Origin: Escherichia coli
GTDB taxonomy: Bacteria > Pseudomonadota > Gammaproteobacteria > Enterobacterales > Enterobacteriaceae
DNA length: 64,000 nt
Reading direction: 5' to 3' (one strand)
Assembly (NCBI GenBank): GCA_009729775.1
Contig: GCA_009729775.1_4081.1
Under the pieces are notes generated by a model. That model was not told where the DNA came from. It saw nothing but the letters and a program-made list of their open reading frames with translations, and searched no databases. The position numbers and the translations under genes are program-made. Positions 9,685 through 27,057 of the stretch are shown here, one piece after another (positions within the stretch are counted from its first letter, which is position 1; the number at the start of each line of letters is the position of its first letter).

Positions 9685-9712
9685 ACTATCTTACAGATAC
9701 TTCTCTGCACCC
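9685..9712 (+). repeat. conserved 28-bp intergenic motif AGATAC...TGCACCCTGTGGGCTAG (copy 1)
   Basis: Read directly; same core in at least 8 intergenic sites. Confidence 0.7.
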
Positions 9713-9739
9713 TGTGGGCTAGTTTTTGTCTATGCGTAT

Positions 9740-9779
9740 ATAATAGCAAAGGGACTGACCGGAGTCAATCCCTTTTTTT
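9740..9779. terminator. stem-loop cassette GGGACTGACCGGAGTCAATCCC with flanking T-run; TTGACT box inside the stem
   Basis: Hairpin 9751-9772, T7 run on plus side; on minus strand TTGACT-N17-TATTAT promoter geometry. Confidence 0.55.
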
Positions 9780-9790
9780 ATTCTTTTTTG

Positions 9791-9991
9791 TTAGATGATT
9801 CTCCAATCTTCTACCAGGATTTTAATATACCGTACCAGTGATTCGAGTGATTCCACTTCCCGATAATCGGTAGCCGTTTGCACGGAACAAGTACAGCCGA
9901 TCAAGCCATTGCCAAGCTCTTTGATCTGTACATCGATGCAGTTGGCTTTTGCTTCATTCAGTACTGCAACCAATTCGTTAGCGATTGACAT
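9791..9991 (-). CDS. hypothetical early protein (66 aa)
   Basis: AGGAG RBS; ORF track. Confidence 0.6.
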   Translation of the reverse strand: MSIANELVAVLNEAKANCIDVQIKELGNGLIGCTCSVQTATDYREVESLESLVRYIKILVEDWRII

Positions 9992-10079
9992 AATGTTTTA
10001 CTCCTAAAGGTGCGGGAGAACTATTCCCCCGCTCTATGTAAAACATTATACATTATCTTGTAGTACTGTCAAATAGTTT

Positions 10080-10337
10080 TTATGAGATATCTTCGATATA
10101 GTCGGCCCATGTCATTTGTTCAGTACTATCGAGTGCACCAGGATTATTTGGATCAAACCATTCGCCATCCCCTAAGTACATTGCAGCGGATACCGCTTTA
10201 TAGCCATTATAGGCGTTATTCCACTGCATAGCACGATAGATATGGCCTTTAATTGGTGTTAGTACTGGTAACGTTTTATGGTCTTCTACGTAGGCTGTAG
10301 CGATTGGATTTACCCGATACGTTTTGAACTGTTCCAT
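10080..10337 (-). CDS. hypothetical early protein (85 aa)
   Basis: AAGGGGA RBS; ORF track. Confidence 0.6.
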   Translation of the reverse strand: MEQFKTYRVNPIATAYVEDHKTLPVLTPIKGHIYRAMQWNNAYNGYKAVSAAMYLGDGEWFDPNNPGALDSTEQMTWADYIEDIS

Positions 10338-10411
10338 GATGTTTCCCCTTTAGTTAGTAAAGTTAATACAACAGTACTATCACGCATTGTCAATAGTACT
10401 GAAATAAAACT

Positions 10412-10636
10412 TTAGATTAGATTATTGATGCCGTTGATGGTAGACTCGCTTTCTTCTTTCTCCCATTGGCGGTAATACTTCCATGCTTCATGATAGGTGG
10501 CGATCAGTTCATCTTTTTGATCCTGAGTACATGCCAGTACTGAATCACTGTAAGCGGTGTTATAGATAGAATCAAATGATTTCTTCTCTTCTGCCAGGGT
10601 AGCTACTTCCCGCATCAGTTCATCAAAGTTAGCCAT
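10412..10636 (-). CDS. hypothetical early protein (74 aa)
   Basis: Start adjusted to MANFDELM...; track ORF N-terminus is leader. Confidence 0.6.
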   Translation of the reverse strand: MANFDELMREVATLAEEKKSFDSIYNTAYSDSVLACTQDQKDELIATYHEAWKYYRQWEKEESESTINGINNLI

Positions 10637-10719
10637 TTTAGTACTCCTTATTAGTGGGGGAGGATATCTCCCCCTATGCAAAACATTATACTTTGTTTTA
10701 CTTACAATGCAAGTACTTT

Positions 10720-10911
10720 TTAAATTTTATTTCCGATATAGTCCGGCCTGTTCTTTTCGGTCATACGCTTAAGCATTTTTTGCATATGGCTTATTGCTTG
10801 TAGTGTATCCTCTTCCAGCGATGAATCAAGATAATCAGGATCATTCTTCACCTTACAATGATTATGATAGCGTAGTACTGCCAGTACTTTTTTAACTTCT
10901 TCAACTGTCAT
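10720..10911 (-). CDS. hypothetical early protein (63 aa)
   Basis: ATGA start-stop overlap with upstream gene (translational coupling). Confidence 0.55.
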   Translation of the reverse strand: MTVEEVKKVLAVLRYHNHCKVKNDPDYLDSSLEEDTLQAISHMQKMLKRMTEKNRPDYIGNKI

Positions 10912-11180
10912 AATAAGTATTCCACTTCGTTTGCTTTCAGGTTAGTATCAATCATCAGTGGCTTTTTGTAGTCCACAAAACGATTAGTTTTTTCGATAGC
11001 GAAGCCCATATAATCCAGCTTGCTTACCGTGCATTCATTCTTAAAAACTTCTTTCGCTGCATTGATGGCTGATTGCAATGTTAACCGACCATCTAAGTTA
11101 ATGTTTCCAAATGATCCACCAGCAGAAGTAGGATTACCGTTCATATCTTTAATGATCATAGTTGCGGAGTAGCTAGACAT
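10908..11180 (-). CDS. hypothetical early protein (90 aa)
   Basis: AAAGGA RBS; ORF track. Confidence 0.6.
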   Translation of the reverse strand: MSSYSATMIIKDMNGNPTSAGGSFGNINLDGRLTLQSAINAAKEVFKNECTVSKLDYMGFAIEKTNRFVDYKKPLMIDTNLKANEVEYLL

Positions 11181-11233
11181 AATTTTGTTTCCTTTTAGTA
11201 TCGGGGAGAACTATTCTCCCCTTGATGTAAACT

Positions 11234-11261
11234 ATTATACAGTACTGATATACTTTGTCAA
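11234..11261 (-). promoter_or_regulatory. sigma70-type early promoter (minus strand)
   Basis: Minus strand reads TTGACA-N16-TATAAT with CAGTACTG abutting the -10. Confidence 0.6.
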
Positions 11262-11264
11262 TAC

Positions 11265-11486
11265 TTAATTACGTTTAAAATGATATGTACCTTTATCATC
11301 CTGTACGCCCCATACTGATTTACCATCAACGCCAGTGAAGCCGGATTGCAATTCAATATGGAAACCATTATTATCAACTACAAAAACTTTTTTATTTTCA
11401 TCCCGATAACATTGATATTCTGAATCAACATTAAAGGCCGCATCATTCAGAAGATTGGAAGCGTAAATGCAAGTCATTGTAGTCAT
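11265..11486 (-). CDS. hypothetical early protein (73 aa)
   Basis: Start adjusted to MTTMTCIY... Confidence 0.6.
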   Translation of the reverse strand: MTTMTCIYASNLLNDAAFNVDSEYQCYRDENKKVFVVDNNGFHIELQSGFTGVDGKSVWGVQDDKGTYHFKRN

Positions 11487-11612
11487 GATTTTATTCCTTA
11501 TTCTTTGAGGGAGAACCATTTCCCCCTCTCGATATAAAACATTATACTTGATTCTAAGTACAATGCAAGTACTTTTTTAAAAATAGTTTTCAGTACTGAA
11601 TACTTATATAAT

Positions 11613-11640
11613 AGATACACTTCCGCACCCTATGGGTCAG
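11613..11640 (+). repeat. conserved 28-bp intergenic motif (copy 2)
   Basis: AGATACACTTCCGCACCCTATGGGTCAG. Confidence 0.7.
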
Positions 11641-11673
11641 TGAGTTATCTCTCAATGAATATATAATAGCAAA

Positions 11674-11701
11674 GGGACTGACTGGAGTCAATCCCTTTTT
11701 T
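11674..11701. terminator. stem-loop cassette GGGACTGACTGGAGTCAATCCC plus T-run
   Basis: Same cassette as 9740-9779. Confidence 0.55.
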
Positions 11702-11709
11702 AATCTTTT

Positions 11710-12294
11710 TTATCGTGTTATAGTTATCGCGTTAACATCACGTTTTTTATAGTACTGATTCCAGATATTGCGGGTTAAACCGTAATCAAGTACTTTAATC
11801 AAGCCGTTGCGATCCTGGCCGATATTCTGTTTTCTGATATCTCTTATCGTTAGTGTGGATAATGTATCATCAACGTGATTGAGAGCATCAGCGAAATGGT
11901 GATGGCGTTCAATAGTGTTACGTTTAATATTGTACTTTAACTCATTACATGCGGTTACGTGCTTTACACTGCCTTTGCTTGCAGTACTCAAACGATCCAT
12001 AACAATAAACAGATTATCAGGATCGCATAAATGCATATGCACCTTGGCAAAGAACTGTTTAAGGTGCGGACGGTCATAATCTAAAAAATTCCATACCTTA
12101 CATTCAGTTTCATTTTGTTCTACACCCGCATCACAATTCGCGACCTTAATCACTAACCGATCATTTAAAGCGAATACAATACGGGAAGAACCCGCACCGA
12201 CGATCTCCAGTCCAGCTAACCGACAAGCTGAAAGGATCTCTTTGTTGGTTTCCATTGCATGAAGTGAACGGATGAATTTAGTATAGTTACGCAT
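11710..12294 (-). CDS. putative protein-kinase-like protein (about 194 aa)
   Basis: Start adjusted to MRNYTKF... with AAGGAG RBS; GAGSSRIVF glycine-loop-like, VIKV lysine, DIRKQNIG catalytic-loop-like and LDYG (DFG-like) motifs. Confidence 0.4.
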   Translation of the reverse strand: MRNYTKFIRSLHAMETNKEILSACRLAGLEIVGAGSSRIVFALNDRLVIKVANCDAGVEQNETECKVWNFLDYDRPHLKQFFAKVHMHLCDPDNLFIVMDRLSTASKGSVKHVTACNELKYNIKRNTIERHHHFADALNHVDDTLSTLTIRDIRKQNIGQDRNGLIKVLDYGLTRNIWNQYYKKRDVNAITITR

Positions 12295-12325
12295 TGTGTT
12301 GACTCCTTGAGTTAATGAAACTATA

Positions 12326-12568
12326 TTACAGTACTTTACTATCAATGGCAACTACTTTTTTTACTTGAACTGCGTGGAATACTTCACGCGTATTTTTAGT
12401 ACTGAATACTTTTGCCGTACCTTGTTCGACCGCAATACGATAGCGACCGTTAACGTCCACCATGTTGATAAAGTCCGGTGTACTGAATGGAGTTACCCGG
12501 CATTTAAGAACGGTTAACAGTTCCACCAGCGTGGTAGTCTCTTTGATACGTTTTTCTAAAGTAATCAT
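12326..12568 (-). CDS. hypothetical early protein (80 aa)
   Basis: Start adjusted to MITLEKR...; TTGACA-N17-TACTAT promoter just upstream. Confidence 0.55.
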   Translation of the reverse strand: MITLEKRIKETTTLVELLTVLKCRVTPFSTPDFINMVDVNGRYRIAVEQGTAKVFSTKNTREVFHAVQVKKVVAIDSKVL

Positions 12569-12625
12569 TTTGTTTTCCCCGTGTTGGTATGCATTCATAG
12601 TACTAAAACATTTGAGTACTGTCAA

Positions 12626-12844
12626 TTAGATAATAGAATATTTCTTTAGTGATAATGCGTCTTCTGTCGGTTGATATTCTACACCGTTCCCGTTATCAAC
12701 CTTAGTGAGTAAACCTTTATCAATGAGTTTTTTGATGGTACGGTTTCCCTGTTGAAAACTAGTGAAGTGTGAATCATTACGAAAGGTATAACCGTGCTTC
12801 ACTGCTTCATCAATAGTTTTCTTTTCGATTTTAGATAATTTCAT
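12626..12844 (-). CDS. hypothetical early protein (72 aa)
   Basis: ORF track; purine-rich RBS. Confidence 0.55.
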   Translation of the reverse strand: MKLSKIEKKTIDEAVKHGYTFRNDSHFTSFQQGNRTIKKLIDKGLLTKVDNGNGVEYQPTEDALSLKKYSII

Positions 12845-12902
12845 TTTGTTTCTCTCTCTCTGTGTTGGTATAGATACATAATACTAAAACATTTGAGTAC
12901 TG

Positions 12903-13157
12903 TCAACGTGATATTAGTTTTATTTTTTTATTGTATTGTTGGTGTTCATATAGATTAATTTTTCCAGTACTCTCGATCACTATTCTATTGTTAGTGTCTA
13001 CATCGATAACACGTAGTTTCCCGTTGCTTAACTTCCTAGGCAATAGACTACCATTAATAAACTCATTAGCAAGCTGTACGGCCTTTGTGATGATTCTCTG
13101 TGGTGCTTTATAGTGTACCCGCAAGATATTATCTTTAGATAGTTGTACCTTCATCAT
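12903..13157 (-). CDS. hypothetical early protein (84 aa)
   Basis: AGGATA RBS. Confidence 0.55.
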   Translation of the reverse strand: MMKVQLSKDNILRVHYKAPQRIITKAVQLANEFINGSLLPRKLSNGKLRVIDVDTNNRIVIESTGKINLYEHQQYNKKIKLISR

Positions 13158-13172
13158 TTTAGTTTATCCTAT

Positions 13173-13197
13173 AAAAAAGGCGGGAACTGAACCCGCC
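13173..13197 (-). terminator. rho-independent terminator
   Basis: GGCGGGTTCAGTTCCCGCC hairpin followed by U-run on the minus strand, just after the stop of 13221-13616. Confidence 0.7.
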
Positions 13198-13220
13198 GTG
13201 TTGTTAGTACTGCAAAGTTA

Positions 13221-13616
13221 TTAGATAACCTGGCGGCGTTTACTGTATACTGTTACACGGTTTCCTTTACGGTCATGACGGATCTCTTTCTGGTTACGAA
13301 TCAGTTCACTTGGACGCTTAAGGTTTGCCAGGTGATCCGCGTGAGTCCATGCATTACTATTCACTTGTACTTGAATATCAGAACCTTCCAAGAAGTCATC
13401 TTGAGCGTTCAGTACTTCAGCCAGTTCTTGAGCTTTCTTCAGTTCTGCTTCAGTAAGTACTGGTTCAGGTGAATTCACAATATCAGAGATCTCTTTGAAC
13501 TGTACCGCCCAGCGTTGTCCTTTCGGTGCATCTTTGCCCATGTCTTTAAATGTTTCACCTTCTTCACGGGCAACGATGCGAGCTTGTTCACGGGTAGCGA
13601 AGAATTTAGTAATCAT
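13221..13616 (-). CDS. hypothetical protein (131 aa), paralog of 25412-25678
   Basis: Shared FATRE-AR-G-TFKDMG and IKHDRKGNRVTVYS blocks. Confidence 0.65.
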   Translation of the reverse strand: MITKFFATREQARIVAREEGETFKDMGKDAPKGQRWAVQFKEISDIVNSPEPVLTEAELKKAQELAEVLNAQDDFLEGSDIQVQVNSNAWTHADHLANLKRPSELIRNQKEIRHDRKGNRVTVYSKRRQVI

Positions 13617-13715
13617 GGTGTACATCCTATTAGTTAAGTTAATTAGTACTACAAGTTAGAGTCTATTATAAAGTACTATCTGGGTAATGTCAAATAGTAC
13701 TTTAAATGGATTCTA

Positions 13716-14039
13716 TTACATGTCTTTCTTACGTTTTACATCGTAGTAACGAACTGTAATTTCTTTGTTGATCTCTTCCTCAATTCTGTGTAGTACTTTC
13801 TCTTTCGGGTTGAAACCTATTACAGTTTCTTTAATGATCTCCAAGCCCGTGTATTCGCCTTGTGTACCGTAACCGTAAGTAAAGGTTTCATGTCCCAGGT
13901 CTTCCCAGCGGTCACCAATCAATGCAGACACGTAGCATGAGTGGTAAGTATTGCCGTGGCTATCAGTCCACCGATTAACTTTAATGTCAAAGGAAGTTAC
14001 AATTTTCATTTCTACTTTCTGGGTAAGGATCATAGCCAT
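13716..14039 (-). CDS. hypothetical protein (107 aa), paralog of 20340-20684
   Basis: Shared GNTY, YGYG and C-terminal VKRKKD motifs. Confidence 0.65.
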   Translation of the reverse strand: MAMILTQKVEMKIVTSFDIKVNRWTDSHGNTYHSCYVSALIGDRWEDLGHETFTYGYGTQGEYTGLEIIKETVIGFNPKEKVLHRIEEEINKEITVRYYDVKRKKDM

Positions 14040-14095
14040 TTTAATTTCTCTCTTTTAGTTAGGAGGGGAACCATTCCCCTGCCTTGATGTAAACT

Positions 14096-14123
14096 ATTAT
14101 ACAGTACTAAGATACTTTGTCAA
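14096..14123 (-). promoter_or_regulatory. sigma70-type early promoter (minus strand)
   Basis: TTGACA-N16-TATAAT on minus strand. Confidence 0.6.
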
Positions 14124-14126
14124 TAC

Positions 14127-14261
14127 TTATTTGTTTTCTTTTCGTAATTTCTTTTCAGCTTCAACTACATTCTTATTTGTGCAAACTACTTCATCGGATA
14201 AATCTAACTTCCATCCAGACAGGGGTTTGGTTTGTTTCTTTGCTGCTTTGTTCGCTTTCAT
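14127..14261 (-). CDS. small Lys-rich protein (44 aa), not in ORF track
   Basis: Hand translation MKANKAAKKQTKPLSGWKLDLSDEVVCTNKNVVEAEKKLRKENK; AAAGGA RBS; own promoter at 14292-14319. Confidence 0.5.
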   Translation of the reverse strand: MKANKAAKKQTKPLSGWKLDLSDEVVCTNKNVVEAEKKLRKENK

Positions 14262-14291
14262 GATGTTTCCTTTTTAATTAAGATGTAAACT

Positions 14292-14319
14292 ATTATACAG
14301 TACTAAGATACTTTGTCAA
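14292..14319 (-). promoter_or_regulatory. sigma70-type early promoter (minus strand)
   Basis: TTGACA-N16-TATAAT, identical cassette to 14096-14123. Confidence 0.6.
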
Positions 14320-14328
14320 TCTATTTTA

Positions 14329-14529
14329 TTAGATAGTTTCCCATTTCATGTTACCCGCTTTACGCTGTGAAACAGGAATAAACATGTTATTAATGTTACT
14401 AATATAACCGACCTGTAAGTCACGCTGTGAACCATATGCCCGACTTGCTGCATTTTTAGCACCGCGTTCTGATTTATAAACGCCGCTGGATACTGTAAAG
14501 CCTACTACACCGAAAGTAAAATGTTTCAT
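14329..14529 (-). CDS. hypothetical early protein (66 aa)
   Basis: AGAGGA RBS; ORF track. Confidence 0.6.
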   Translation of the reverse strand: MKHFTFGVVGFTVSSGVYKSERGAKNAASRAYGSQRDLQVGYISNINNMFIPVSQRKAGNMKWETI

Positions 14530-14595
14530 TTTGTATTCCTCTTTGTGGTTGATGTAAGTATTATACTCGTTTACTTTCTATTGTCAATCTTTTTT

Positions 14596-14668
14596 ATCAG
14601 GGGAGTTTTTCGTATGTCTTACTCCTGGACTACTTAACGGGGTTACTTGTTTCGTTCCCCGTCCTGAT
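14596..14668 (-). promoter_or_regulatory. two-hairpin leader element between tandem promoters (copy 1)
   Basis: CAGGGGAG...CTCCTGG and AACGGGG...CCCCGTC stems; near-identical copy at 25181-25256. Confidence 0.5.
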
Positions 14669-14723
14669 GTAAAACATTATACTTGATTCTAAGTACAATG
14701 CAAGTACTTTTTAAAAATAGTTT

Positions 14724-14888
14724 TCACTTACTCATATTAACAGGCTTAAACGGTGGCAATGTAAGATCATGCGGGGTTAAACTGTCATGCTTTGCCCACA
14801 TACCAGAATCCCTACGGAATAATACCTTATTGTTTTTTATACGATAAAAGTTACCATTATCAGTGTTTTTATACCATACCATTTTCAT
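14724..14888 (-). CDS. small protein (54 aa), not in ORF track
   Basis: Hand translation MKMVWYKNTDNGNFYRIKNNKVLFRRDSGMWAKHDSLTPHDLTLPPFKPVNMSK; AGGAG RBS. Confidence 0.45.
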   Translation of the reverse strand: MKMVWYKNTDNGNFYRIKNNKVLFRRDSGMWAKHDSLTPHDLTLPPFKPVNMSK

Positions 14889-14976
14889 TTACTCCTGGTT
14901 ATGTCGTTATTAAACATTATACGGGGTTATAGATAGTTTGCAATTAGTTTTTCAGTACTAGCCACCAGCATATAAT

Positions 14977-15004
14977 AGATACATTTATGCACCCTGTGGG
15001 CTGA
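14977..15004 (+). repeat. conserved 28-bp intergenic motif (copy 3)
   Basis: AGATACATTTATGCACCCTGTGGGCTGA. Confidence 0.7.
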
Positions 15005-15032
15005 TTTGTTTCTATGCGTATATAATAGCAAA

Positions 15033-15061
15033 GGGACTGACCGGAGTCAATCCCTTTTTTA
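15033..15061. terminator. stem-loop cassette GGGACTGACCGGAGTCAATCCC plus T-run
   Basis: Same cassette as 9740-9779. Confidence 0.55.
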
Positions 15062-15068
15062 ATTCTTT

Positions 15069-15218
15069 TTAAACTTGTTTTGGGTTGCGATATGTGATAG
15101 CGTTCGGGTACATTTGTTTAATGTTATTCCATGCCTGGTTAACATTGTAACCACTTGAGCGAATCAGTTGGTTACTACCGACACCTTGAAACACTACTTC
15201 GAATAAGAATTCTTTCAT
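15069..15218 (-). CDS. small protein (49 aa), not in ORF track
   Basis: Hand translation MKEFLFEVVFQGVGSNQLIR...; GAGGTGA RBS; ATGA overlap with upstream ORF. Confidence 0.45.
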   Translation of the reverse strand: MKEFLFEVVFQGVGSNQLIRSSGYNVNQAWNNIKQMYPNAITYRNPKQV

Positions 15219-15388: not shown

Positions 15389-15477
15389 TGTATTACTCCT
15401 GATTGTGTTAGTACTTCTACGATGGCATGAATGATCATAAGTACAGCTAACACAACAATCATCGGATTCATTTGCAT
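15385..15477 (-). CDS. small hydrophobic peptide (30 aa), not in ORF track
   Basis: MQMNPMIVVLAVLMIIHAIVEVLTQSGVIQ; AAGGAG RBS 7 nt upstream. Confidence 0.35.
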   Translation of the reverse strand: MQMNPMIVVLAVLMIIHAIVEVLTQSGVIQ

Positions 15478-17089: not shown

Positions 17090-17334
17090 TATTTTAACCT
17101 CATTATAAAAATACTATAGTACTGTAATGCGACAATAATATTACTTGTTCTTACTTTTTCCAATCCACATGATACAACATATTCATCCCCATATGTTCGA
17201 AACGAAACACCATGAAAATTTTTATACACTTGCACTTCTAATCATAACCTTTTGTCTAACCAACTGCGTAGAATTATACTACTTTACGCAAATTGATCAA
17301 GTATTGATCAGATCATTTTTTGATCAATATTATA

Positions 17335-17363
17335 CAGTTACATTTGTGCACCCTATGGGTTAG
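17335..17363 (+). repeat. conserved 28-bp intergenic motif (copy 4, variant)
   Basis: CAGTTACATTTGTGCACCCTATGGGTTAG. Confidence 0.6.
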
Positions 17364-17420
17364 TGCCTTGTGTCCGGCTTATGTACTTATTATACAGTAC
17401 TTGATGATATTGTCAATAGT

Positions 17421-18892: not shown

Positions 18893-19025
18893 GATTCGTT
18901 TCCTTATTACCAGGGGAAACCGTTTCCCCTTGCGATGTAAAACATTATACGCCTATTGATATAGTTTGCAAGTACTTTTTATCAAATACTTTAAAATAGT
19001 TTTCAGTACTCAATCATTATACAAT

Positions 19026-19053
19026 AGATACACTTATGCACCCTGTGGGCTAG
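19026..19053 (+). repeat. conserved 28-bp intergenic motif (copy 5)
   Basis: AGATACACTTATGCACCCTGTGGGCTAG. Confidence 0.7.
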
Positions 19054-19087
19054 TGAGCTATCTCTCAATGAATACATAATAGCAAAA

Positions 19088-19115
19088 TGGCTGACCGAAG
19101 TCAACCACTTTTTTT
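19088..19115. terminator. stem-loop cassette GGCTGACCGAAGTCAACC plus T-run
   Basis: Variant of the cassette that recurs at 45-60 kb. Confidence 0.55.
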
Positions 19116-20978: not shown

Positions 20979-20979
20979 T

Positions 20980-21516: not shown

Positions 21517-21586
21517 TGTTTTGATTCCTATTCAGTAGTTGATGTATGTATTATGTCAGTACTTAAAACTATTGTCAAACTATTTT

Positions 21587-21739
21587 TTAAAGACTATCTA
21601 CGATAGCTGCCGTTTCAATAATAGACTTACCTTTTTTTGAACATGCAATAACTGCTTTAAATTCCTTTGATGACCATTCTTTTTTACTGCATACTAACAT
21701 TACTTGCATAGTGAAACAATCCAGTTCATAAGTATTCAT
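21587..21739 (-). CDS. small protein (50 aa), not in ORF track
   Basis: Hand translation MNTYELDCFTMQVMLVCSKKEWSSKEFKAVIACSKKGKSIIETAAIVDSL; GAGGA RBS. Confidence 0.4.
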   Translation of the reverse strand: MNTYELDCFTMQVMLVCSKKEWSSKEFKAVIACSKKGKSIIETAAIVDSL

Positions 21740-21960
21740 CTTTAAATCCTCAGTTAGTTAAGGTGTCTTGCCTTGATGTAACTAATTATACGCCTTTCTC
21801 TTAATCGTGCAAGTACTTTTTATTACTTTTTGCAAAATACTTTAAACGCTCTCAATCGCATTCTAACGGCCTTAACTCCACCAGCTAGGGCGATGCATCA
21901 GATAATCAGTTTAATGCGTTAGAATCGATTCTATGAGGTGCTGACGGTCTGGAATGCAAT

Positions 21961-21993
21961 AAAAACAAAAAAGCCCACTGCTTATAGTGGGCT
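21961..21993 (-). terminator. rho-independent terminator
   Basis: AGCCCACT-loop-AGTGGGCT hairpin with long U-run on the minus strand, after the stop of 22015-22497. Confidence 0.7.
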
Positions 21994-22014
21994 AGTGATT
22001 CAGTACTTTAAATG

Positions 22015-22497
22015 TTATGCTTCAATTTTGCGGTGAGATTCGATCCATTCCTCGCGAGTCATACCGCTTTCTTTGATAGCATCCAGTACTACCGCAATGC
22101 AGTTACCGCGTACAGGAATCAAATGTTCTTCCCCGTTATCAAGGACAACCGTAACACGTTCTTGAATCCATTTTTTAGGCTTAGATTCCGGCTTATCTTC
22201 ACCGTACTTAACCGCCAGGGCTTTATGTGCCATTTCAATAACCACTTCCAGATCTAAACCAGACACCGCCGCCTGAATACTTTCTATTGTTGCTTGCAGT
22301 TCTGCTTCACGGGCTTTTTTCTGTTCTTCCAGTTCTGCTACCTTTTTGGCTTGTAGTTCTTTCGCTTCACTGTAAGCAATGTTAAAATTGTTGCGTACTG
22401 CTTTCATGGTATCATTATCCAGGTCAGCCAGCAATTCAGCAGCAATCACAGTATCGTTAGAAATCAGTGCTTTCAGAAATGATTTTACATTAGCCAT
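22015..22497 (-). CDS. putative H-NS-like nucleoid-associated protein (160 aa)
   Basis: Start adjusted to MANVKSF... (GAGGA RBS); N-terminal coiled-coil-like region, C-terminus LDNGEEHLIPVRGNCIAVVLDAIKESGMTREEW parallels the H-NS DNA-binding core [34 protein letters not shown]. Confidence 0.4.
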   Translation of the reverse strand: MANVKSFLKALISNDTVIAAELLADLDNDTMKAVRNNFNIAYSEAKELQAKKVAELEEQKKAREAELQATIESIQAAVSGLDLEVVIEMAHKALAVKYGEDKPESKPKKWIQERVTVVLDNGEEHLIPVRGNCIAVVLDAIKESGMTREEWIESHRKIEA

Positions 22498-22684
22498 TTT
22501 ATAAATCCTCAATTAAAGTTTAAGTTAGTTTATCAAAGTTTGTTTGACGTGTCCAGTTTTTCATTCGACTTACTGGCGGTCTACTTAATGTTCCCCGTCT
22601 TGATGTAATACATTCTACGCTTTTCCCTGGTAATGTCAACTACTTTTTTAAAACTATTTTCAAAGTATACCAGTACTACGATAA

Positions 22685-22720
22685 TACAAAAACAAAAAAG
22701 CCCACTGTTTAAGGTGGGCT
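22685..22720 (-). terminator. rho-independent terminator
   Basis: AGCCCAC-loop-GTGGGCT hairpin plus U-run on minus strand after 22738-23037. Confidence 0.7.
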
Positions 22721-22737
22721 AGTGATTCAGTACTAGA

Positions 22738-23037
22738 TTATAAACAGTTAATTACTCCGGTGTGCGTTACTTTCTCAGTATCCATCACAGTGACCGAACC
22801 GCGTTTAGTACTGGCATCATAATAAATTGTTGTGCTACCGTTTTTGTCTTCTTCATGGAACGGGCCGTTTTTAAATGCTTCCGGCTGGATCTCTAAATCC
22901 TTTAATACAATCTCGCCAGTTCTTTCATCGGTCATTGCAACAGTGCACTGAATGAATTTTTCACTACTTACATCTAATGACGCATTAACAGCGAAAGAGG
23001 AAACAGATAAAGCCAGGGCGATGATTGCAATTTTCAT
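22738..23037 (-). CDS. secreted small protein with signal peptide (99 aa)
   Basis: N-terminus MKIAIIALALSVSSFAVNAS; AAGGATA RBS. Confidence 0.6.
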   Translation of the reverse strand: MKIAIIALALSVSSFAVNASLDVSSEKFIQCTVAMTDERTGEIVLKDLEIQPEAFKNGPFHEEDKNGSTTIYYDASTKRGSVTVMDTEKVTHTGVINCL

Positions 23038-23121
23038 TTGATTATCCTTAGTTACCAGGGGGAACCGCTCCCCCTTGCTATGTAAAATATTATACAGTAC
23101 TAAAAACTAATTGCAAGTACT

Positions 23122-23358
23122 TTATGATTTTTTATAAAACATTTCGGCAGTGATATTTTTACCCGTTGGCTGTACTTTATCCAGAATTTTTTGATGCCCT
23201 GGCCGTCCAAATGAATATGATCCGTAAACCGTAAACCAGTAGTTACCCTCAGTGTTTACATGTACAGCACAATAGGGAACGCCCCGCGATTCATCACTAG
23301 TAAAGTGTGCTACCGTTCCCGTTACATTCGAAGTCGTTGATTTGATTTGTTCAAGCAT
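23122..23358 (-). CDS. hypothetical protein (78 aa)
   Basis: AAGGAATA RBS; ORF track. Confidence 0.6.
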   Translation of the reverse strand: MLEQIKSTTSNVTGTVAHFTSDESRGVPYCAVHVNTEGNYWFTVYGSYSFGRPGHQKILDKVQPTGKNITAEMFYKKS

Positions 23359-23466
23359 TTTCTTATTCCTTAGTTACCAGGGGAACCGCTCCCCTATGCA
23401 AAACATTATACGCGTTTAAAAACTATTGTCTAGTATTTTAATAAAAAGTATTTGAAAAATAGTTGT

Positions 23467-23495
23467 TGACAAGTGCATCCAGTACTGGCATAATA
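23467..23495 (+). promoter_or_regulatory. plus-strand sigma70-type promoter driving a short non-coding transcript
   Basis: TTGACA-N17-CATAAT on the plus strand; no plus-strand ORF follows. Confidence 0.45.
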
Positions 23496-23519
23496 CTTAC
23501 ATAAAGACGAGATAGTCAC

Positions 23520-23548
23520 TAACCCACAGGGTGCATAGATCCGTCTAT
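23520..23548 (-). repeat. conserved 28-bp intergenic motif (copy 6, inverted orientation)
   Basis: Plus strand reads CTAACCCACAGGGTGCATAGATCCGTCTA, reverse complement of the core. Confidence 0.65.
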
Positions 23549-23565
23549 TAAATGATTCAGTACTG

Positions 23566-23593
23566 CAAAATAAAGGGGATCAATTGATCCCCT
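23566..23593 (-). terminator. rho-independent terminator
   Basis: Perfect palindrome GGGGATCAATTGATCCCC followed by U-run on minus strand after 23599-23820. Confidence 0.7.
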
Positions 23594-23598
23594 CTGTA

Positions 23599-23820
23599 TT
23601 ACTTAGTAAGGTATAAACAGAAGTCACCTTTATTTGCTACGCCGCCAGTGTAACGCGATGAATAGTTAGAAACGTCCTGGACTTCTGCTATTACCAGTGT
23701 ATCATCATTCAATTCGTCGCAGAAGCAAACGGCTGGATCTTTTACGCCGATATTGTCGGCATGTTCCCGCATAGATTTAACCAGTGCTTCAAGTTGGGAA
23801 AGAGTAGTGATATTAGCCAT
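23599..23820 (-). CDS. hypothetical protein (73 aa)
   Basis: Start adjusted to MANITTLSQ...; GAGGAAAA RBS. Confidence 0.6.
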   Translation of the reverse strand: MANITTLSQLEALVKSMREHADNIGVKDPAVCFCDELNDDTLVIAEVQDVSNYSSRYTGGVANKGDFCLYLTK

Positions 23821-23907
23821 TTTATTTTCCTCATTACCAGGGAGAACCATTTTCTCCCCTCTATGTAAACCATTATACAGTACTAAAAACTAATTGCAAG
23901 TACTTTT

Positions 23908-24111
23908 TTAATTTAATTGCTTTAAAACATACTCAAAGACACCACGCACATCATTGATCATCGCCTGGCGGTTAGCAGGTAACGCATCAGGATCGCCACT
24001 ATCCCAGGCATTGATAAAACTCCCCAAATCATGATAGATTTTATTCTGTAAGCCGATCAACTGCAATTCTTTTTCTTCAAGCTCTTTGATACGTTCAATT
24101 AAATCACTCAT
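23908..24111 (-). CDS. hypothetical protein (67 aa)
   Basis: Start adjusted to MSDLIERIKELEEK...; AAGGA RBS. Confidence 0.55.
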   Translation of the reverse strand: MSDLIERIKELEEKELQLIGLQNKIYHDLGSFINAWDSGDPDALPANRQAMINDVRGVFEYVLKQLN

Positions 24112-24128
24112 TATATAATCCTTAGTAC

Positions 24129-24410
24129 TTAATTGTAAGATCCGCAACGGTCGCAGTAGTGCCCCTCGTCATCGTCAACGAATTGACCAACGAAATTATC
24201 TACTTTCGCTTTCAGGTTATTATAATCGTTTTCTACTTCCTTTAAACGCTTCTGGTAGTATTCCAGTGCTTTAAGATATGCCGCATCAGTAGTTTTCTCC
24301 TGCATAGCTAAATTCATGCCACGCGTTTCATCATAAAGCCAATAACCATCAGTACATTGGCTAATAGACAATGACTTGCTTAACACTGTATAGTTAATTA
24401 CTTTGCTCAT
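24129..24410 (-). CDS. hypothetical protein (93 aa)
   Basis: Start adjusted to MSKVINYTVL... Confidence 0.55.
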   Translation of the reverse strand: MSKVINYTVLSKSLSISQCTDGYWLYDETRGMNLAMQEKTTDAAYLKALEYYQKRLKEVENDYNNLKAKVDNFVGQFVDDDEGHYCDRCGSYN

Positions 24411-24500
24411 TAGATAACCCTCAGTAAAGGCGGGAACCACTCCCCGCCTCGATATAAAGTATTATACGCTTTTAAACTTAGTATGCAAGTACTTTTTAAA

Positions 24501-25112
24501 TTAATATGCGATAGATTCTACTACATCGTCGATAACGTTAAATTGATATTCGTTACCCTCAATCAGTCCTACAATGTTTTCAGTAGTAAACTGGTCTTCA
24601 TAAGCATTTTCTAAATCACGGTACAGCTTACAAGATAATTCTCGGATAGTATCAGTCAGTAAGTTTTCCAGATCCTCAGCTAATGCAGCCTGTTTTACAG
24701 TTAAATCAGTGTAGCGAGTATCAACGCAACCGCCTACCGTGTTTTCGTGAGCGTAGCGTGATTGGGAACGTTCTACACTCATTTCCAAATCATCTTCGTT
24801 CAACAGGTGACGGATGGAACGATATTTCGTTAACGCCTTAACCTTGCGTAAAAACTTCTCAGCGTCAACGTGGTCAGTACTGATTGATGCACCGTCACCT
24901 TGCGACCAAAAACCACTGTATTGCAATTCAGCTTCATCTATGCCGTATTCTGGCAGTACTGTTTCTTTATAGTATTCCAGTACTGATTCAGCAAAGAAAT
25001 TATCCTCACTTGCACGTTCCCGATCCCGAACCAGTTCGATAGCCGCCGCTTGTTGTTCTGCGTTCAGTTCAGAAAAATCCATAACGAAAGTAGTAGTAGT
25101 GATAGTTTTCAT
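24501..25112 (-). CDS. hypothetical acidic protein (203 aa)
   Basis: GAGGG RBS; ORF track. Confidence 0.65.
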   Translation of the reverse strand: MKTITTTTFVMDFSELNAEQQAAAIELVRDRERASEDNFFAESVLEYYKETVLPEYGIDEAELQYSGFWSQGDGASISTDHVDAEKFLRKVKALTKYRSIRHLLNEDDLEMSVERSQSRYAHENTVGGCVDTRYTDLTVKQAALAEDLENLLTDTIRELSCKLYRDLENAYEDQFTTENIVGLIEGNEYQFNVIDDVVESIAY

Positions 25113-25180
25113 TTTGTAACCCTCATTCAGTAGTTGATGTAAGTATTATACGCTTTTAAAAACAATTGTCAAACTATTTT

Positions 25181-25256
25181 ATCAGGGGAGTTTTTCGTGT
25201 GCCTTACTCCTGGGCTACTTAACGGGAAGTTACTTATTTCGTTCCCCGTCCTGATG
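25181..25256 (-). promoter_or_regulatory. two-hairpin leader element between tandem promoters (copy 2)
   Basis: Near-identical to 14596-14668. Confidence 0.5.
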
Positions 25257-25325
25257 TAAAACATTATACGCCTTTAAACATAGTTTGCAAGTACTTTTTG
25301 AAAATAGTTTTTATCTCTTTCATAT

Positions 25326-25353
25326 AGATACATTCCCGCACCCTATGGGCTAT
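25326..25353 (+). repeat. conserved 28-bp intergenic motif (copy 7)
   Basis: AGATACATTCCCGCACCCTATGGGCTAT. Confidence 0.65.
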
Positions 25354-25411
25354 CGCCTTGTGTCCGGCTTGTAAGTATTATCTCACTAAGCCGGATAACG
25401 GTCAAGTACTT

Positions 25412-25678
25412 TTATTCAAGTACTGCAATCTTTTTAGTACTGTATACAGTAACGCGGTTGCCCTTTCGGTCGTGCTTTATTTCTACCACTCGACGCGATA
25501 CACTATCAGGACTTTTTAAAACCGATCTCCAGTACTGAATTGATCGGGCTGTACTTTGCTTTACTACGGCCCAACGTTTACCACGTTCAGAATGTACGCC
25601 CATATCTTTAAACGTCGCCCCGTCCTGGCGTGCGGCAATCCGAGCAAGTTCACGCGTTGCAAAGTATATAATATTCAT
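25412..25678 (-). CDS. hypothetical protein (88 aa), paralog of 13221-13616
   Basis: Start adjusted to MNIIYFATRELARI...; shared IKHDRKGNRVTVYS block. Confidence 0.6.
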   Translation of the reverse strand: MNIIYFATRELARIAARQDGATFKDMGVHSERGKRWAVVKQSTARSIQYWRSVLKSPDSVSRRVVEIKHDRKGNRVTVYSTKKIAVLE

Positions 25679-25760
25679 GCTGTTACCCCTATCGTTGTTG
25701 TATAAAAGAAATCTATTATAAAGTACTATCACCGTGCAATAGTACTTTTAATCTATTCTC

Positions 25761-26000
25761 TTACATTCCAACCATCGCCGCACGGATCGCAGTAGTGCTA
25801 TACTTAAAGCCGTCCGGTGTTTTATCTTGTCCAGTCTGTTCTAAAAATAGCATCATATGACGGGCCGCATCATTACGATTAGTGTTAGCGGCAATAAAGT
25901 CCTGGGCCAACCGGTATAATGATTCGTCGTTATTAATCCAAAGGCTTACATTCCATTGAGTTTTGTTTTTGTGACCTAAGAACATTTTTGATTTAGCCAT
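25761..26000 (-). CDS. hypothetical protein (79 aa)
   Basis: Start adjusted to MAKSKMFLGHKN...; AGAGGA RBS. Confidence 0.55.
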   Translation of the reverse strand: MAKSKMFLGHKNKTQWNVSLWINNDESLYRLAQDFIAANTNRNDAARHMMLFLEQTGQDKTPDGFKYSTTAIRAAMVGM

Positions 26001-26093
26001 TTTTTTAATCCTCTTATATAGTGGGGAACTATTCCCCACCTGATGTAAAACATTATACGCTTTTAAACTTAGTTTGCAAGTACTTTATTAAAC

Positions 26094-26456
26094 TTATTCG
26101 TAAATCTTTCCACTATCAGCCCATACCAGGAAACGAGGCATATTATCCCATGCATCTTGTTTTAAATTTAAACCGTGTAATACTTCTGTACTTTCCATTC
26201 CTGGTACTGGTTTACTATACACCGCGAACATTTCGCCCATGTACTGATAAGCCATCGTTAAATCACTGGCGATCATCTTATGAATCATCGCATCAAGCAT
26301 CACGGTAGCGGCGTATTGTTCACGCTTAAGCGGTAACATTGCAATAAGTTCCCGATAAGCTGAAATGTGAATTTTTACCGTTTCAGCCGGAAGATCTTTC
26401 ATCTCTTCACGGAAGTTAACCAGGTTAGCAATAATTTTAGTGATTTGAGTAGCCAT
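26094..26456 (-). CDS. hypothetical protein (120 aa)
   Basis: Start adjusted to MATQITKIIANLV...; AGAGAG RBS. Confidence 0.6.
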   Translation of the reverse strand: MATQITKIIANLVNFREEMKDLPAETVKIHISAYRELIAMLPLKREQYAATVMLDAMIHKMIASDLTMAYQYMGEMFAVYSKPVPGMESTEVLHGLNLKQDAWDNMPRFLVWADSGKIYE

Positions 26457-26762
26457 CGTTTTAATCTCTCTTAAAGTGTAGCGGGAAGTGTTCCCGCTCT
26501 CGATGTAAAACATTATACGCCTATCGGGATAGTATGCAAGTACTTTCTACTAATACTTTTAAAATAGTTTTCTTTCTATATAGGAGTACTATCATTCAGT
26601 ACTGAATCAACCAAATCACTACTATACCCCATAAAACGGCCTCAGCCGCTTTCTAACGCATTAATACACCTAAGCTATACATTTGCACCGCCACCAGCTA
26701 ACCAGGGCTTTATAGGCCGTTTAAGGGCGTTAAATTATTTTCAATTATTTTGTTTTTAGCTA

Positions 26763-26790
26763 TTGACTCAGTACAAAAAAAGCGTATAAT
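26763..26790 (+). promoter_or_regulatory. plus-strand sigma70-type promoter in non-coding hub
   Basis: TTGACT-N16-TATAAT; no ORF downstream. Confidence 0.45.
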
Positions 26791-26977
26791 TACTACATAG
26801 ACGCGAGAAAGCGGATACCCCAGGGGGTGGGAAGATCCGTCCAAAATTCATATAATTTAAAAAGGATACACTCCCGCACCTTAGCAGGTCATAGCACTTT
26901 CTCAGTACTGAATCATAGTACCATAGTACGCCCCTGGATGGCAAGCAAATTAATTAAAACTTTTTACATCCAGGGTA

Positions 26978-27005
26978 TTGCTTTATTTTTCCAGTACTGT
27001 ATAAT
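26978..27005 (+). promoter_or_regulatory. plus-strand promoter-like element in non-coding hub
   Basis: TTGCTT-N16-TATAAT followed by motif copy 8. Confidence 0.35.
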
Positions 27006-27029
27006 AGTTTCATCAAGTCGAGAAAGACT

Positions 27030-27057
27030 CAAGCCCACCGGGTGCATAGTTGTATCT
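27030..27057 (-). repeat. conserved 28-bp intergenic motif (copy 8, inverted orientation)
   Basis: Plus strand reads CAAGCCCACCGGGTGCATAGTTGTATCT. Confidence 0.65.

Follow-up and report, generated by a model that had tools for sequence, protein, structure and literature searches.

The window, by which we mean the whole 64-kb stretch of DNA analysed here, is part of an Asteriusvirus, a jumbo phage of Escherichia coli of the 121Q/PBECO4/G17 type. All copies of the repeated motif described below lie, as we infer, inside the ~20-kb direct terminal repeat of this phage, which is its early region. A terminator scan finds this region punctuated by terminators, and Pfam matches among its open reading frames comprise a DksA-like zinc finger, a GNAT acetyltransferase, a ParE-like domain and several domains of unknown function; the same Pfam search of the early ORFs returned no candidate protein for binding the element.

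The motif was originally written as 28 bp of the form AGATAC-N6-TGCACCCTGTGGGCTAG, a spacing that gives 0 matches even when 3 mismatches are allowed. The true spacer is N5 (AGATAC TTCTC TGCACCCTGTGGGCTAG, at 9695-9722), with which the length of 28 bp is correct. The repeat itself is real and its core recurs far above chance expectation: with up to 2 mismatches, CCCTGTGGGCTAG has 7 matches against 0.34 expected and TGCACCCTGTGGG has 11 against 0.44, of which 8 are the copies first reported. The positions given for those at 11613, 14977, 17335, 19026, 23520, 25326 and 27030 are accurate, whereas the first copy starts at 9695 rather than 9685. A profile HMM recovers exactly eight full copies, and a covariance model run without filters recovers the same eight plus a diverged ninth at 26793-26849 (+ strand, E 0.018), with no further copy elsewhere in the 64 kb. 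The estimate of at least eight copies in both orientations thus becomes a count of nine, all between 9,688 and 27,064 (Table 1). Every one lies between plausible genes and is preceded by a sigma70-type promoter, as the sequence-only reading had proposed in calling the motif always intergenic and always next to a promoter.

Table 1. Copies of the RNA element, their promoters (P1), the separate promoters of the adjoining genes (P2) and associated hairpins in the window.
Feature	Position	Strand	Basis and remarks
RNA element copy 1, short variant without hairpin 1	9688..9739	-	covariance model, 37.2 bits; holds motif 9695-9722
P1 of copy 1, TTGACT-N17-TATTAT	9740..9768	-	promoter scan; -35 inside terminator hairpin 9748-9775 of upstream gene (terminator scan)
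P2, TTGACA-N17-AATAAT, drives gene 9208-9534	9588..9616	-	promoter scan, sequence
RNA element copy 2, hairpin 1 UGAG-AGAUAA-CUCA, hairpin 2 ACCC-AUA-GGGU	11606..11662	-	covariance model, 70.5 bits
P1 of copy 2, TTGACT-N17-TATTAT	11663..11691	-	promoter scan; overlaps terminator hairpin 11671-11698
P2, TTGCAT-N16-TATAAT with UP-like A/T tract	11541..11568	-	sequence reading; drives gene 11265-11519 via own 5' hairpin and RBS
RNA element copy 3, short variant without hairpin 1	14970..15021	-	covariance model, 42.8-42.9 bits
P1 of copy 3	15022..15050	-	promoter scan; overlaps terminator hairpin 15030-15057
P2, TTGCAA-N16-TATAAT, for gene 14724-14888	14916..14943	-	promoter scan
RNA element copy 4, hairpin 1 GCC-GGACACAA-GGC	17329..17386	-	covariance model, 29.1 bits
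P1 of copy 4, TTGACA-N16-TATAAT	17389..17416	-	promoter scan
P2, TTGATC-N16-TATAAT, for gene 16832-17089	17273..17300	-	promoter scan
RNA element copy 5	19019..19075	-	covariance model, 67.1 bits
P1 of copy 5	19076..19104	-	promoter scan; overlaps terminator hairpin 19084-19111
P2, TTGCAA-N16-TATAAT, for gene 18551-18892	18944..18971	-	promoter scan
P1 of copy 6, TTGACA-N17-CATAAT with TG	23466..23494	+	promoter scan; strand opposite genes
RNA element copy 6, stand-alone, anti-gene strand	23497..23553	+	covariance model, 49.2 bits
Perfect palindromic hairpin GGGGATCAATTGATCCCC	23575..23592	.	sequence; terminator of minus-strand gene 23599-23850
RNA element copy 7	25319..25376	-	covariance model, 34 bits
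P1 of copy 7, TTGACC-N17-GATAAT with TG	25377..25405	-	promoter scan
P2, TTGCAA-N16-TATAAT, for gene 24501-25112	25263..25290	-	promoter scan
P1 of copy 8, TTGACT-N16-TATAAT	26763..26790	+	promoter scan
RNA element copy 8, diverged (CCCC-AGG-GGGG), absent from earlier reading	26793..26849	+	covariance model, 20.5 bits, E 0.018
Tentative decayed convergent partner of copy 8, GGATACACTCCCGCACCTTAGCAGGTC on + strand	26865..26911	-	weak nhmmer match; sequence
P1 of copy 9, TTGCTT-N16-TATAAT, CAGTACTG in spacer	26978..27005	+	sequence reading
RNA element copy 9, anti-gene strand	27008..27064	+	covariance model, 64.3 bits; TTCAGTACTGAA and T-run directly 3'

Because each copy follows a sigma70-type promoter in the same orientation, the transcribed strand is the reverse complement of the motif as first written, and the proposed division into plus and inverted copies gives way to one identical unit whose promoter fires into that complement. 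Six copies do lie between a minus-strand promoter and the next gene, but the gene is driven by a second, separate promoter, which in those window copies that were examined leads into a 5' hairpin, RBS and ATG of its own. The suggestion that the inverted copies form the 5' end of a short transcript holds for the copy at 23497, where a promoter, the ~57-nt element and a terminator-like hairpin follow one another, but not for that at 27008, where a further promoter comes next instead. Judging from the sequence, the palindromic hairpin beyond copy 6 would likely form the 3' end of its RNA, at ~100 nt.

Beyond the window, the covariance model identifies 136 copies (125 distinct) in jumbo phages of Escherichia, Klebsiella, Cronobacter, Pectobacterium, Yersinia and Erwinia and in metagenomes, and we assign the promoter-RNA module to the Rak2-like jumbo phages. 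The element is kept across Asteriusvirus, Alcyoneusvirus, Mimasvirus and Eneladusvirus and its flanks diverge. Searches of 100,044 bacterial and archaeal genomes gave no match to it, Rfam gave none even at E up to 1, and the covariance model found no copy in the terminal repeat of the Pseudomonas relative PA5oct (best E 0.12). Between close relatives the cassettes differ: the site in phage G17 orthologous to copy 7 holds a convergent pair, and the G17 locus examined (L001) contains no covariance-model match to copy 4.

In this wider set a sigma70 promoter is present in all 123 distinct promoter contexts. In 91 of these the end of the -10 lies 7 nt upstream of the conserved A of a YA start, the base at -1 is C or T without exception, and that at +1 is A in 114 of 123; from this fixed spacing we predict that the element begins at +1. 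The resulting RNA module is ~50-57 nt long and consists of 5'-A(U), hairpin 1, a YUA linker, hairpin 2 and a tail of the form GC-RRARN-UGUAUCUAU. Hairpin 1 has a stem of 3-5 bp, free in sequence, and a purine-rich loop (GNGAAA, AGAUAA or AGAACAA); hairpin 2 is a nearly invariant RCCC-AYA-GGGU. A 13-nt core is invariant across the four genera, in which promoters and flanks vary.

Both hairpins are supported by covariation. Hairpin 1 is paired in 92.2-92.8% of cases, with changes on both sides at all four pairs in 39-54 of the 125 sequences and more than 14 different stem sequences in which pairing is kept, and the top four mutual-information column pairs are exactly its pairs. Hairpin 2 is paired in 97.6-99.4%, with AU/GU alternation at the closing pair and two CCU..AGG double changes from different genera, although its extreme conservation means that its covariation rests on few sequences. 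The alignments behind these pair counts were fitted to the model; as controls, slid pairings reached at most 55% of cells, and the observed score was reached by 0 of 500 shuffles. The hairpin-2 loop has 3 or 4 nt within the same genomes, and the core shifts by 5-8 nt relative to the start site depending on whether the copy has hairpin 1, which at least 8 copies lack entirely. Single-sequence folding energies are unremarkable (z 0 to -2.8), and in some minimum-energy structures the 5' region is instead paired to the tail.

The placement of the cassette was scored in a subset of 74 copies. About a third (23) lie on the anti-gene strand, 11 of these in convergent pairs and 7 with a terminator-like hairpin within ~20 nt. 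On the gene strand, 37 of 51 lack a terminator-like hairpin over a distance of 120 nt, and almost every one of the 37 is followed by another promoter-like site starting 12-57 nt downstream; half of the 74 copies would therefore need processing or a roadblock to yield a discrete small RNA. The occurrence of the cassette in either orientation, as convergent pairs and as terminated ~100-nt units suggests that the RNA itself, and not a downstream gene, is probably the product.

We consider it probable, with some reserve, that transcripts from a dedicated set of strong early promoters of host (sigma70) type begin with a structured RNA, that the motif is its conserved core, and that this RNA, encoded in multiple copies and made very early, is a small RNA or a detachable leader. 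Of the functions suggested in the sequence-only reading, the small RNA and leader options are thus the ones favoured by promoter context, start-site spacing and the two covarying hairpins, and a protein-binding role in either form is the most likely. 5'-terminal stem-loops protect ompA and T7 transcripts against 5'-end-dependent decay, and hairpin 1, which begins 1-4 nt in from the predicted 5' terminus, may by analogy shield the RNA in the same way. The near-invariant hairpin 2 and single-stranded tail would provide a sequence-specific binding site for a protein, whether an early phage protein or an enterobacterial host factor, for which the RNA might serve as a decoy or recruitment tag. The cassette, flanked by an upstream terminator and by the next operon's own mRNA promoter, would have the RNA as its product, and a leader form might be detached through processing in the AU-rich tail. 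An AGTACT palindrome that starts 0-9 nt past the element in 51 of 128 copies (~40%) may help to set the 3' end.

A less probable, though still conceivable, explanation is a cis-acting antitermination signal of the lambda nut (boxA-boxB) or HK022 put type, in which the nascent RNA, by itself or together with an early protein of the phage, would modify its own RNA polymerase so that P1 transcripts read through early terminators at which second-promoter transcripts stop. As in those phages, host RNA polymerase makes a short structured RNA at the (predicted) very start of an early transcript, a small hairpin sits beside a conserved single-stranded stretch, and terminators lie downstream; the short stem and purine-rich, GNRA-like loop of hairpin 1 are loosely boxB-like, and the element would be limited to P1 transcripts because the second promoter lies 12-57 nt downstream of it. 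However, the element contains no boxA-like sequence, its loop is of 6-8 nt rather than a GNRNA pentaloop, its parts are ordered differently and the copies without hairpin 1 lack the boxB-like part altogether. No N-like protein was recognised among the early ORFs, nor did Rfam offer a relative, and the anti-gene third of the copies would act away from genes, 7 of them facing a terminator with nothing to express beyond it.

We think it unlikely that the repeats are only mobile promoter-terminator cassettes, persisting through recombination and gene shuffling, with a conserved stretch that is carried along or serves promoter escape but has no role as RNA. Such promoter-early stem-loop (PeSL) cassettes are known from T4-type phages (Arbiol 2010; Comeau 2014, PMC4122927), and the likeness comprises many repeats in a plastic early region, replacement at an orthologous site between the window phage and G17, and a composite of terminator stem-loop and near-consensus sigma70 early promoter, the -35 of P1 lying within a terminator hairpin in four window copies. 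A PeSL, however, runs directly into the RBS and start codon of a gene. Here the product of P1 is a structured RNA that is conserved and non-coding, expression of the gene is left to another promoter, and the cassette also occurs inverted or in pairs. The transcript start (TTCATTGAGAGA...) presumably resembles the downstream region of T5 early promoters, which we count in favour of this explanation. Recombination leaves unexplained both the compensatory changes across the hairpin-1 stems and the invariance of the 13-nt core despite varying promoters and flanks, and within the same 19.5 kb there are ~35 further strong promoters without the element.

The binding site for a phage regulator that had also been suggested would, if made of double-stranded DNA, be an operator at which a phage or host protein binds ACCC-N3-GGGT and flanking bases downstream of the promoters and blocks or modulates them, for example in early shut-off. 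The core does vary little, ACCC..GGGT is a short inverted repeat, and a protein bound at +20 to +45 would be well placed to act as a roadblock. We nevertheless regard this as quite improbable: half-site spacing is 3 or 4 bp within single genomes, promoter distance shifts by 5-8 bp with hairpin 1, pairing is maintained by the CCU..AGG double changes, the alternation of A and G opposite a U that never varies is as expected from G-U wobble, and the adjacent hairpin 1 covaries. The MotA box of T4 is the upstream box of middle promoters. A phage-specific middle promoter, with CCCAYAGGGTGC as the upstream box at -35 to -24 for a phage sigma factor or activator and TAnnnT after GTATC as the -10, is highly improbable even though the clade encodes its own sigma factor (PMC5259590; PMC11895373) and many copies have CCCACA at a fitting distance of 17 bp from a downstream TATAAT, TATTAT or TAAAAT, since TAnnnT is in place in no more than 30 of 73 copies, the key T of its sixth position occurs in 41 of 73, such a promoter in the stand-alone copies would transcribe a terminator only, and the covariation would be left unexplained.

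The small RNA or leader that we favour also differs from the known systems closest to it. PA5oct relies on host polymerase and carries highly transcribed early genes in a long terminal repeat, where RNA-seq detected two abundant non-coding RNAs (PMC7318152); these are of 236 and 451 nt and single-copy, unlike the short, multi-copy element. In its logic only, the element is like CsrB/RsmZ and Qrr1-5, with several near-identical short RNAs per genome that share one conserved exposed motif, but it has no GGA repeats and a single site per RNA. By analogy, such multiplicity may point to a need for high dosage or to titration of an abundant partner. Like the stabilising stem-loops of the ompA 5' UTR and T7 late transcripts, hairpin 1 tolerates changes in its stem provided that it pairs; unlike them, it has a purine-rich loop, ending in AA, that is conserved as well, and the invariant hairpin 2 and tail that come after it would be superfluous in a pure stabiliser. 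As a separate observation, the mRNAs from the second promoters also start with a hairpin.

Taken together, our comparisons show a promoter-coupled, structured element of ~55 nt that is conserved across phage genera and placed in either orientation, and of which the 28-bp motif represents the reverse complement of the core. In the sense of transcription the element reads A(U), hairpin 1, YUA, RCCC-AYA-GGGU and GC-RRARN-UGUAUCUAU. A covariance model built on 16 gapless seeds recovers 74 copies in the window and six reference phages, spanning four genera, and the addition of IMG/VR and metagenome loci brings the collection to 136 copies, 125 of them distinct. Hairpin 1 occurs with more than 14 different stems of 3-5 bp (UGAG/CUCA, GGC/GCC, AGUC/GACU, AGCA/UGCU, ACCAC/GUGGU, ACCG/CGGU, GACG/CGUC, GGAG/CUCC, GCCA/UGGC and GGAA/UUCC among them) that enclose a conserved purine-rich loop of 6-8 nt (GCGAAA, GAGAAA, AGAUAA, AGAACAA). 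At least eight copies, including those at 9688 and 14970, lack this hairpin and keep an A-rich stretch instead.

The sequence-only reading had proposed covariance analysis as a check, and this analysis returned two hairpins with compensatory changes in the 125-sequence alignment. Hairpin 1 is paired in 92-93%, and each of its four pairs, which are also the top four pairs by mutual information, has changes on both sides in 39-54 of the 125 sequences. Hairpin 2 is paired in 97.6-99.4%; its closing pair switches between A-U and G-U. CCU..AGG double changes occur twice, in a Pectobacterium phage and in a Yersinia phage. Controls slid by 1-3 columns leave at most 55% of cells paired, and no shuffle attains the observed score. 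The alignments used for these pairing counts were fitted to the covariance model, a bias in its favour; despite this, the margin over slid and shuffled controls is large and the covariation is clear. A plain MAFFT alignment followed by RNAalifold recovered hairpin 2 alone because hairpin 1 was out of register, which the gapless seed alignment and covariance model corrected. Single-copy folding energies are not exceptional. Two further pairings were rejected. A candidate third helix, formed within the tail by columns 57-60 and 67-70, is only 55.5% paired and has no real covariation. Base pairs between the tail (UAUCU) and either the hairpin-1 loop (AGAUA) or the 5' end appear in some minimum-energy folds and have no mutual-information support.

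Within the window, the motif core greatly exceeds chance expectation: when up to two mismatches are allowed, CCCTGTGGGCTAG has 7 matches where 0.34 are expected, and TGCACCCTGTGGG has 11 where 0.44 are expected. The motif had been described with an N6 spacer, a pattern with no match in the window even when 3 mismatches are allowed. The sequence of the first site shows that the spacer is N5, with which the reported length of 28 bp agrees. A profile HMM returns exactly eight full copies, the number originally listed, although the first had been placed 10 bases off. The unfiltered covariance model extends this to nine over the whole window, adding a diverged copy, and finds none outside 9,688-27,064 of the 64 kb. 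Every copy lies between plausible genes, as had been reported.

The promoter association likewise holds: a sigma70-type promoter was found for each aligned copy and, in a wider set, in 123 of 123 distinct copy contexts. Its -35 is TTGACA or TTGACT in 104 of these contexts and its spacer is 17 in 91; many also carry TG at -15/-14 and are A-rich from -46 to -40. In 91 of the 123 contexts the final -10 base precedes the conserved A by 7 nt, C or T occupies position -1 without exception, and 114 contexts have A at +1. From this spacing and the conserved A, the element begins at the predicted transcription start; by prediction it would have a promoter of its own whose start coincides with the first base of the conserved RNA, an arrangement expected of an independent small-RNA gene. 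Because each copy has such a promoter firing into the motif from the opposite strand, the copies first classed as plus and inverted are one and the same unit, which does occur on both strands. A candidate promoter on the other strand (TATAAT-AGATAC, resembling T5 N25) was discarded, as reading of the sequence gave no acceptable -35 at 16-18 bp. Strong sigma70-type sites are themselves common between 9000 and 28500: ~45 lie on the minus strand in this 19.5 kb, about one per small gene, many with UP-like A/T tracts, and only 9 strong promoters carry the element. The same interval holds 13 perfect TTGACA-N16/17-TATAAT matches.

About half of the length of the region is ~89-96% identical to Escherichia jumbo phages 121Q, PBECO4, G17, slurp01 and their relatives (Asteriusvirus). 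The phage G17 record begins at ~8,287 of the window, with genes on the minus strand and pointing toward that end. In the near-identical phage Sharanji, PhageTerm identified a direct terminal repeat of 20,668 bp (PMC11895373), and the matching region is annotated as a terminal repeat in CBB and Muenster. By inference, a terminal repeat probably spans ~8,287-28,100 of the window and would hold every motif copy. In the related phage PA5oct the most highly transcribed early genes sit in the terminal repeat (PMC7318152), and the repeat to which the element is confined is likely to be expressed first. The terminal repeat of PA5oct contains no copy of the element at covariance-model sensitivity, so the PA5oct RNA-seq transcript data are not transferable. 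The element is present in Asteriusvirus, Alcyoneusvirus (RaK2, K64-1), Mimasvirus (GAP32, CBB) and Eneladusvirus (Yersinia and Erwinia phages), and also in metagenomic contigs, several of them 350-366 kb long.

Placement of the cassette, that is, of the promoter (P1) with its element, follows a few recurrent patterns among the 74 copies from the window and six reference phages. Fifty-one are on the gene strand, of which 37 have no terminator-like hairpin within 120 nt; in nearly all of these 37, another promoter-like site (P2) begins 12-57 nt downstream. In the window P2 is TTGCAA-N16-TATAAT with a near-consensus UP-element tract ahead of it, and its transcript starts with its own GC-rich hairpin, followed by a ribosome-binding site and ATG. 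The other 23 copies are on the opposite strand: 11 converge on a gene-strand partner, and another 7 have a terminator-like hairpin within ~20 nt and so form ~100-nt units, one of which matches the short promoter-led transcript earlier suggested for an inverted copy. Overall, 22 of the 74 copies are in convergent pairs, 10 outside pairs have a terminator-like hairpin within 120 nt (7 anti-gene, 3 in-line) and 42 have neither (37 in-line, 5 anti-gene). These counts place the cassette, in either orientation, after an upstream terminator and ahead of the promoter for the next operon's mRNA. In four of the nine window copies the P1 -35 lies within a terminator hairpin, and the other five promoters lack such a hairpin. 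In the convergent pairs, which occur in GAP32 (L003), CBB (L004) and the reference loci L005 and L006, the model ends are exactly 7 nt apart in 9 of 11, so that read-through transcripts would fold into a hairpin of ~20-27 bp; some pairs are centred on a (C/G)AGTACTG palindrome. Flanking sequences are orthologous between 25.3 kb of the window and 17.5 kb of G17, but the cassettes there differ: the window has a single cassette and G17 a convergent pair with a different hairpin 1, indicating that cassettes turn over between close relatives. Copy 4 of the window (17329) has no counterpart among the model matches in the fetched G17 locus.

Positions in the window of individual sites, hairpins, transcripts and neighbouring features
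Feature	Position	Strand	Description
First motif site	9695-9722		AGATAC-TTCTC-TGCACCCTGTGGGCTAG
Diverged ninth copy	26793-26849	+	covariance model, E 0.018
Near-identical 28-nt hairpin	9748-9775, 11671-11698, 15030-15057, 19084-19111		AAAGGGATTGACTCCGGTCAGTCCCTTT; terminator of one operon, contains -35 of next promoter
Predicted ~100-nt unit	23466-23592		inverted copy; ends at terminator-like hairpin
Examples of P2 transcript starts	11500-11540, 18900-18940		hairpin, then ribosome-binding site
Lysine-rich ORF, 45 aa	19115-19252		adjoins element copy 5
Array of small ORFs	~3160-8220	-	tandem
Gap in ORFs	27072-28363		inferred inner end of terminal repeat
Repeated sequence	27348, 27374		CTACG(T/C)CCAAAATCC; resembles tail of diverged element copies
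Repeated sequence	27940, 27971		AAGGGGTAATTGAA
TGATTAC-type repeats	28023-28246

The RNA part of the cassette is without a described relative; in kind it would be a family of phage non-coding RNAs or leaders coupled to early promoters. Rfam 15 gives no match at the gathering score over the whole window and none at E ≤1 over 9000-29000, hence none to any antitoxin or repeat RNA model that it contains; ARAGORN finds no tRNA or tmRNA. The literature on these phages, as far as it is searchable, describes neither the motif sequence nor such an element. The element is not known to resemble CRISPR repeats. Type III antitoxin RNAs of the ToxI kind are expected as tandem repeats, whereas the copies in the window are 0.2-6.3 kb apart and not tandem. 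The idea of a host mimic was dropped: the exact core-plus-tail pattern has no match in 100,044 bacterial and archaeal genomes, a search in which shorter patterns would be swamped by chance matches. A search of the window for the tail's complement, as a possible target, returned nothing beyond the motif copies and scattered chance sites. The terminator-promoter part, by comparison, works like the PeSL cassettes of T4-type phages and partly fits their definition (PMC4122927). Both have a stem-loop or terminator directly before or overlapping a sigma70-type early promoter, here overlapping in the four window copies described. Both also lie in plastic regions where close relatives differ by insertions, deletions or replacements, as the comparison of the window phage with G17 illustrates. 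They differ in that the PeSL promoter leads directly into the Shine-Dalgarno and start codon of a gene (PMC4122927), whereas here P1 leads into a 57-nt non-coding element and then P2, and only P2 precedes a ribosome-binding site and ATG.

What the element does can be outlined only conditionally. Stem-loops of the ompA type at the 5' end protect RNA against 5'-end-dependent decay, and hairpin 1, 1-4 nt from the 5' end, may shield this RNA in the same way. The invariant hairpin 2 and tail would form a putative sequence-specific binding site for a protein. The product is probably the RNA itself rather than a downstream gene: either a multi-copy, very early small RNA or a leader freed by cleavage in the AU-rich tail. 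In either form it might act as a decoy or recruitment tag. The palindrome AGTACT starts 0-9 nt past the element in 51 of 128 copies, and it is speculation that it marks the 3' end of the RNA, for example as a protein roadblock; it is 12-20 times over-represented in exactly the element-bearing phages. A bolder reading, which taken whole we regard as possible and still rather doubtful, is that the element is a new class of predicted protein-binding RNA, present in 8-15 copies per terminal repeat and made in the first minutes of infection, that captures an Enterobacterales-specific host factor (an RNA-binding regulator, nuclease or immune sensor) or partners a phage early protein, and that may cooperate with the AGTACT palindrome.

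The main rival is antitermination of the nut or put type, which accounts for the tandem promoters and leaves the anti-gene and terminated copies unexplained. The boxA consensus of lambda-type nut sites (CGCUCUUA / UGCUCUUUAACAA) is absent from the 125 aligned copies, and boxB is a GNRNA pentaloop on a 5-bp stem; hairpin 1, in the copies that carry it, has a 3-5-bp stem and a 6-8-nt purine-rich loop. Lambda-type sites work with a cognate small, arginine-rich antiterminator encoded close by. Pfam searches of 49 early ORFs yield no antiterminator family, and neither Pfam nor PHROGs assigns an early ORF to an RNA-binding or antiterminator family. A crude scan gave the 45-aa lysine-rich ORF next to copy 5 and a few others, which is not evidence of function. 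A DNA operator fares worse. Most copies have a hairpin-2 loop of 3 nt, and most of those in Yersinia and Erwinia phages have one of 4 nt (UAUA), with both lengths found within one genome; the distance from start site to core shifts by 5-8 nt with hairpin 1; and in hairpin 2 the R facing an invariant U behaves like a wobble pair. These features suit an RNA hairpin and suit a dimeric DNA-binding site poorly. Of the options first offered for the motif, an RNA family or leader is favoured by the covariation and a DNA site for a phage regulator is not. Specific tests also weaken a pure recombination cassette and, finally, a middle promoter of the T4 MotA type, which needs a conserved upstream box at about -30 and a sigma70 -10 (TAnnnT) at a fixed distance, a placement that only 30 of the 73 copies show. 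On that count the -10-like hexamer that follows GTATC was rejected as a sigma-dependent pause or middle promoter.

Rak2-like jumbo phages (121Q, PBECO4, RaK2, K64-1, GAP32, CBB) are therapy candidates against E. coli and Klebsiella. The analysis defines in them an unannotated RNA family with 125 distinct examples, clear covariation, a fixed link to one promoter class and confinement to the terminal repeat, through which host take-over can be approached in a concrete and testable way. Together with a partner, the invariant hairpin and tail could turn out to form a new RNA-protein pair or an RNA-based counter-defence. Because a very strong promoter is combined with a 5' hairpin at the transcript start in either orientation, the cassette may also serve as an expression part.

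Several other features of the early region deserve mention. AGTACT occurs 260 times in the window against ~22 expected (12-fold), the next commonest 6-bp palindrome occurring 81 times. It is densest over 8287-28100, at ~6.4 per kb in the terminal-repeat part, and 160 of the 260 sites are within coding sequence. About half have C before or G after, with the full CAGTACTG in 58. The palindrome turns up repeatedly in promoter spacers directly ahead of the -10, immediately upstream of the -35 and directly behind the element. The excess is 16-20-fold in G17, RaK2, GAP32, CBB and the Yersinia and Erwinia phages and 0.3-fold in PA5oct, a distribution across phages identical to that of the RNA element; we found no account of it in the literature. 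The 1.3-kb gap, where no ORF reaches 50 aa, is dense in CAGTACTG palindromes and in short direct repeats, has similar gene-free counterparts in G17 and RaK2, and could be a non-coding RNA, an origin or a repeat boundary. Among the 49 small early ORFs (8400-29800), Pfam identifies a DksA/TraR-type zinc finger, a GNAT acetyltransferase, a ParE-like toxin domain, a weak protein-kinase match and several domains of unknown function, and nothing else. The small-ORF array comprises ~18-20 ORFs of 66-90 aa, many with a shared ...(L/V)LGTN-like end, and judging from the translations resembles a paralogous family lying immediately beyond the terminal repeat. GC skew changes sign twice, to positive at ~28 kb and to negative again at ~42 kb, and small minus-strand ORFs extend past 28 kb.
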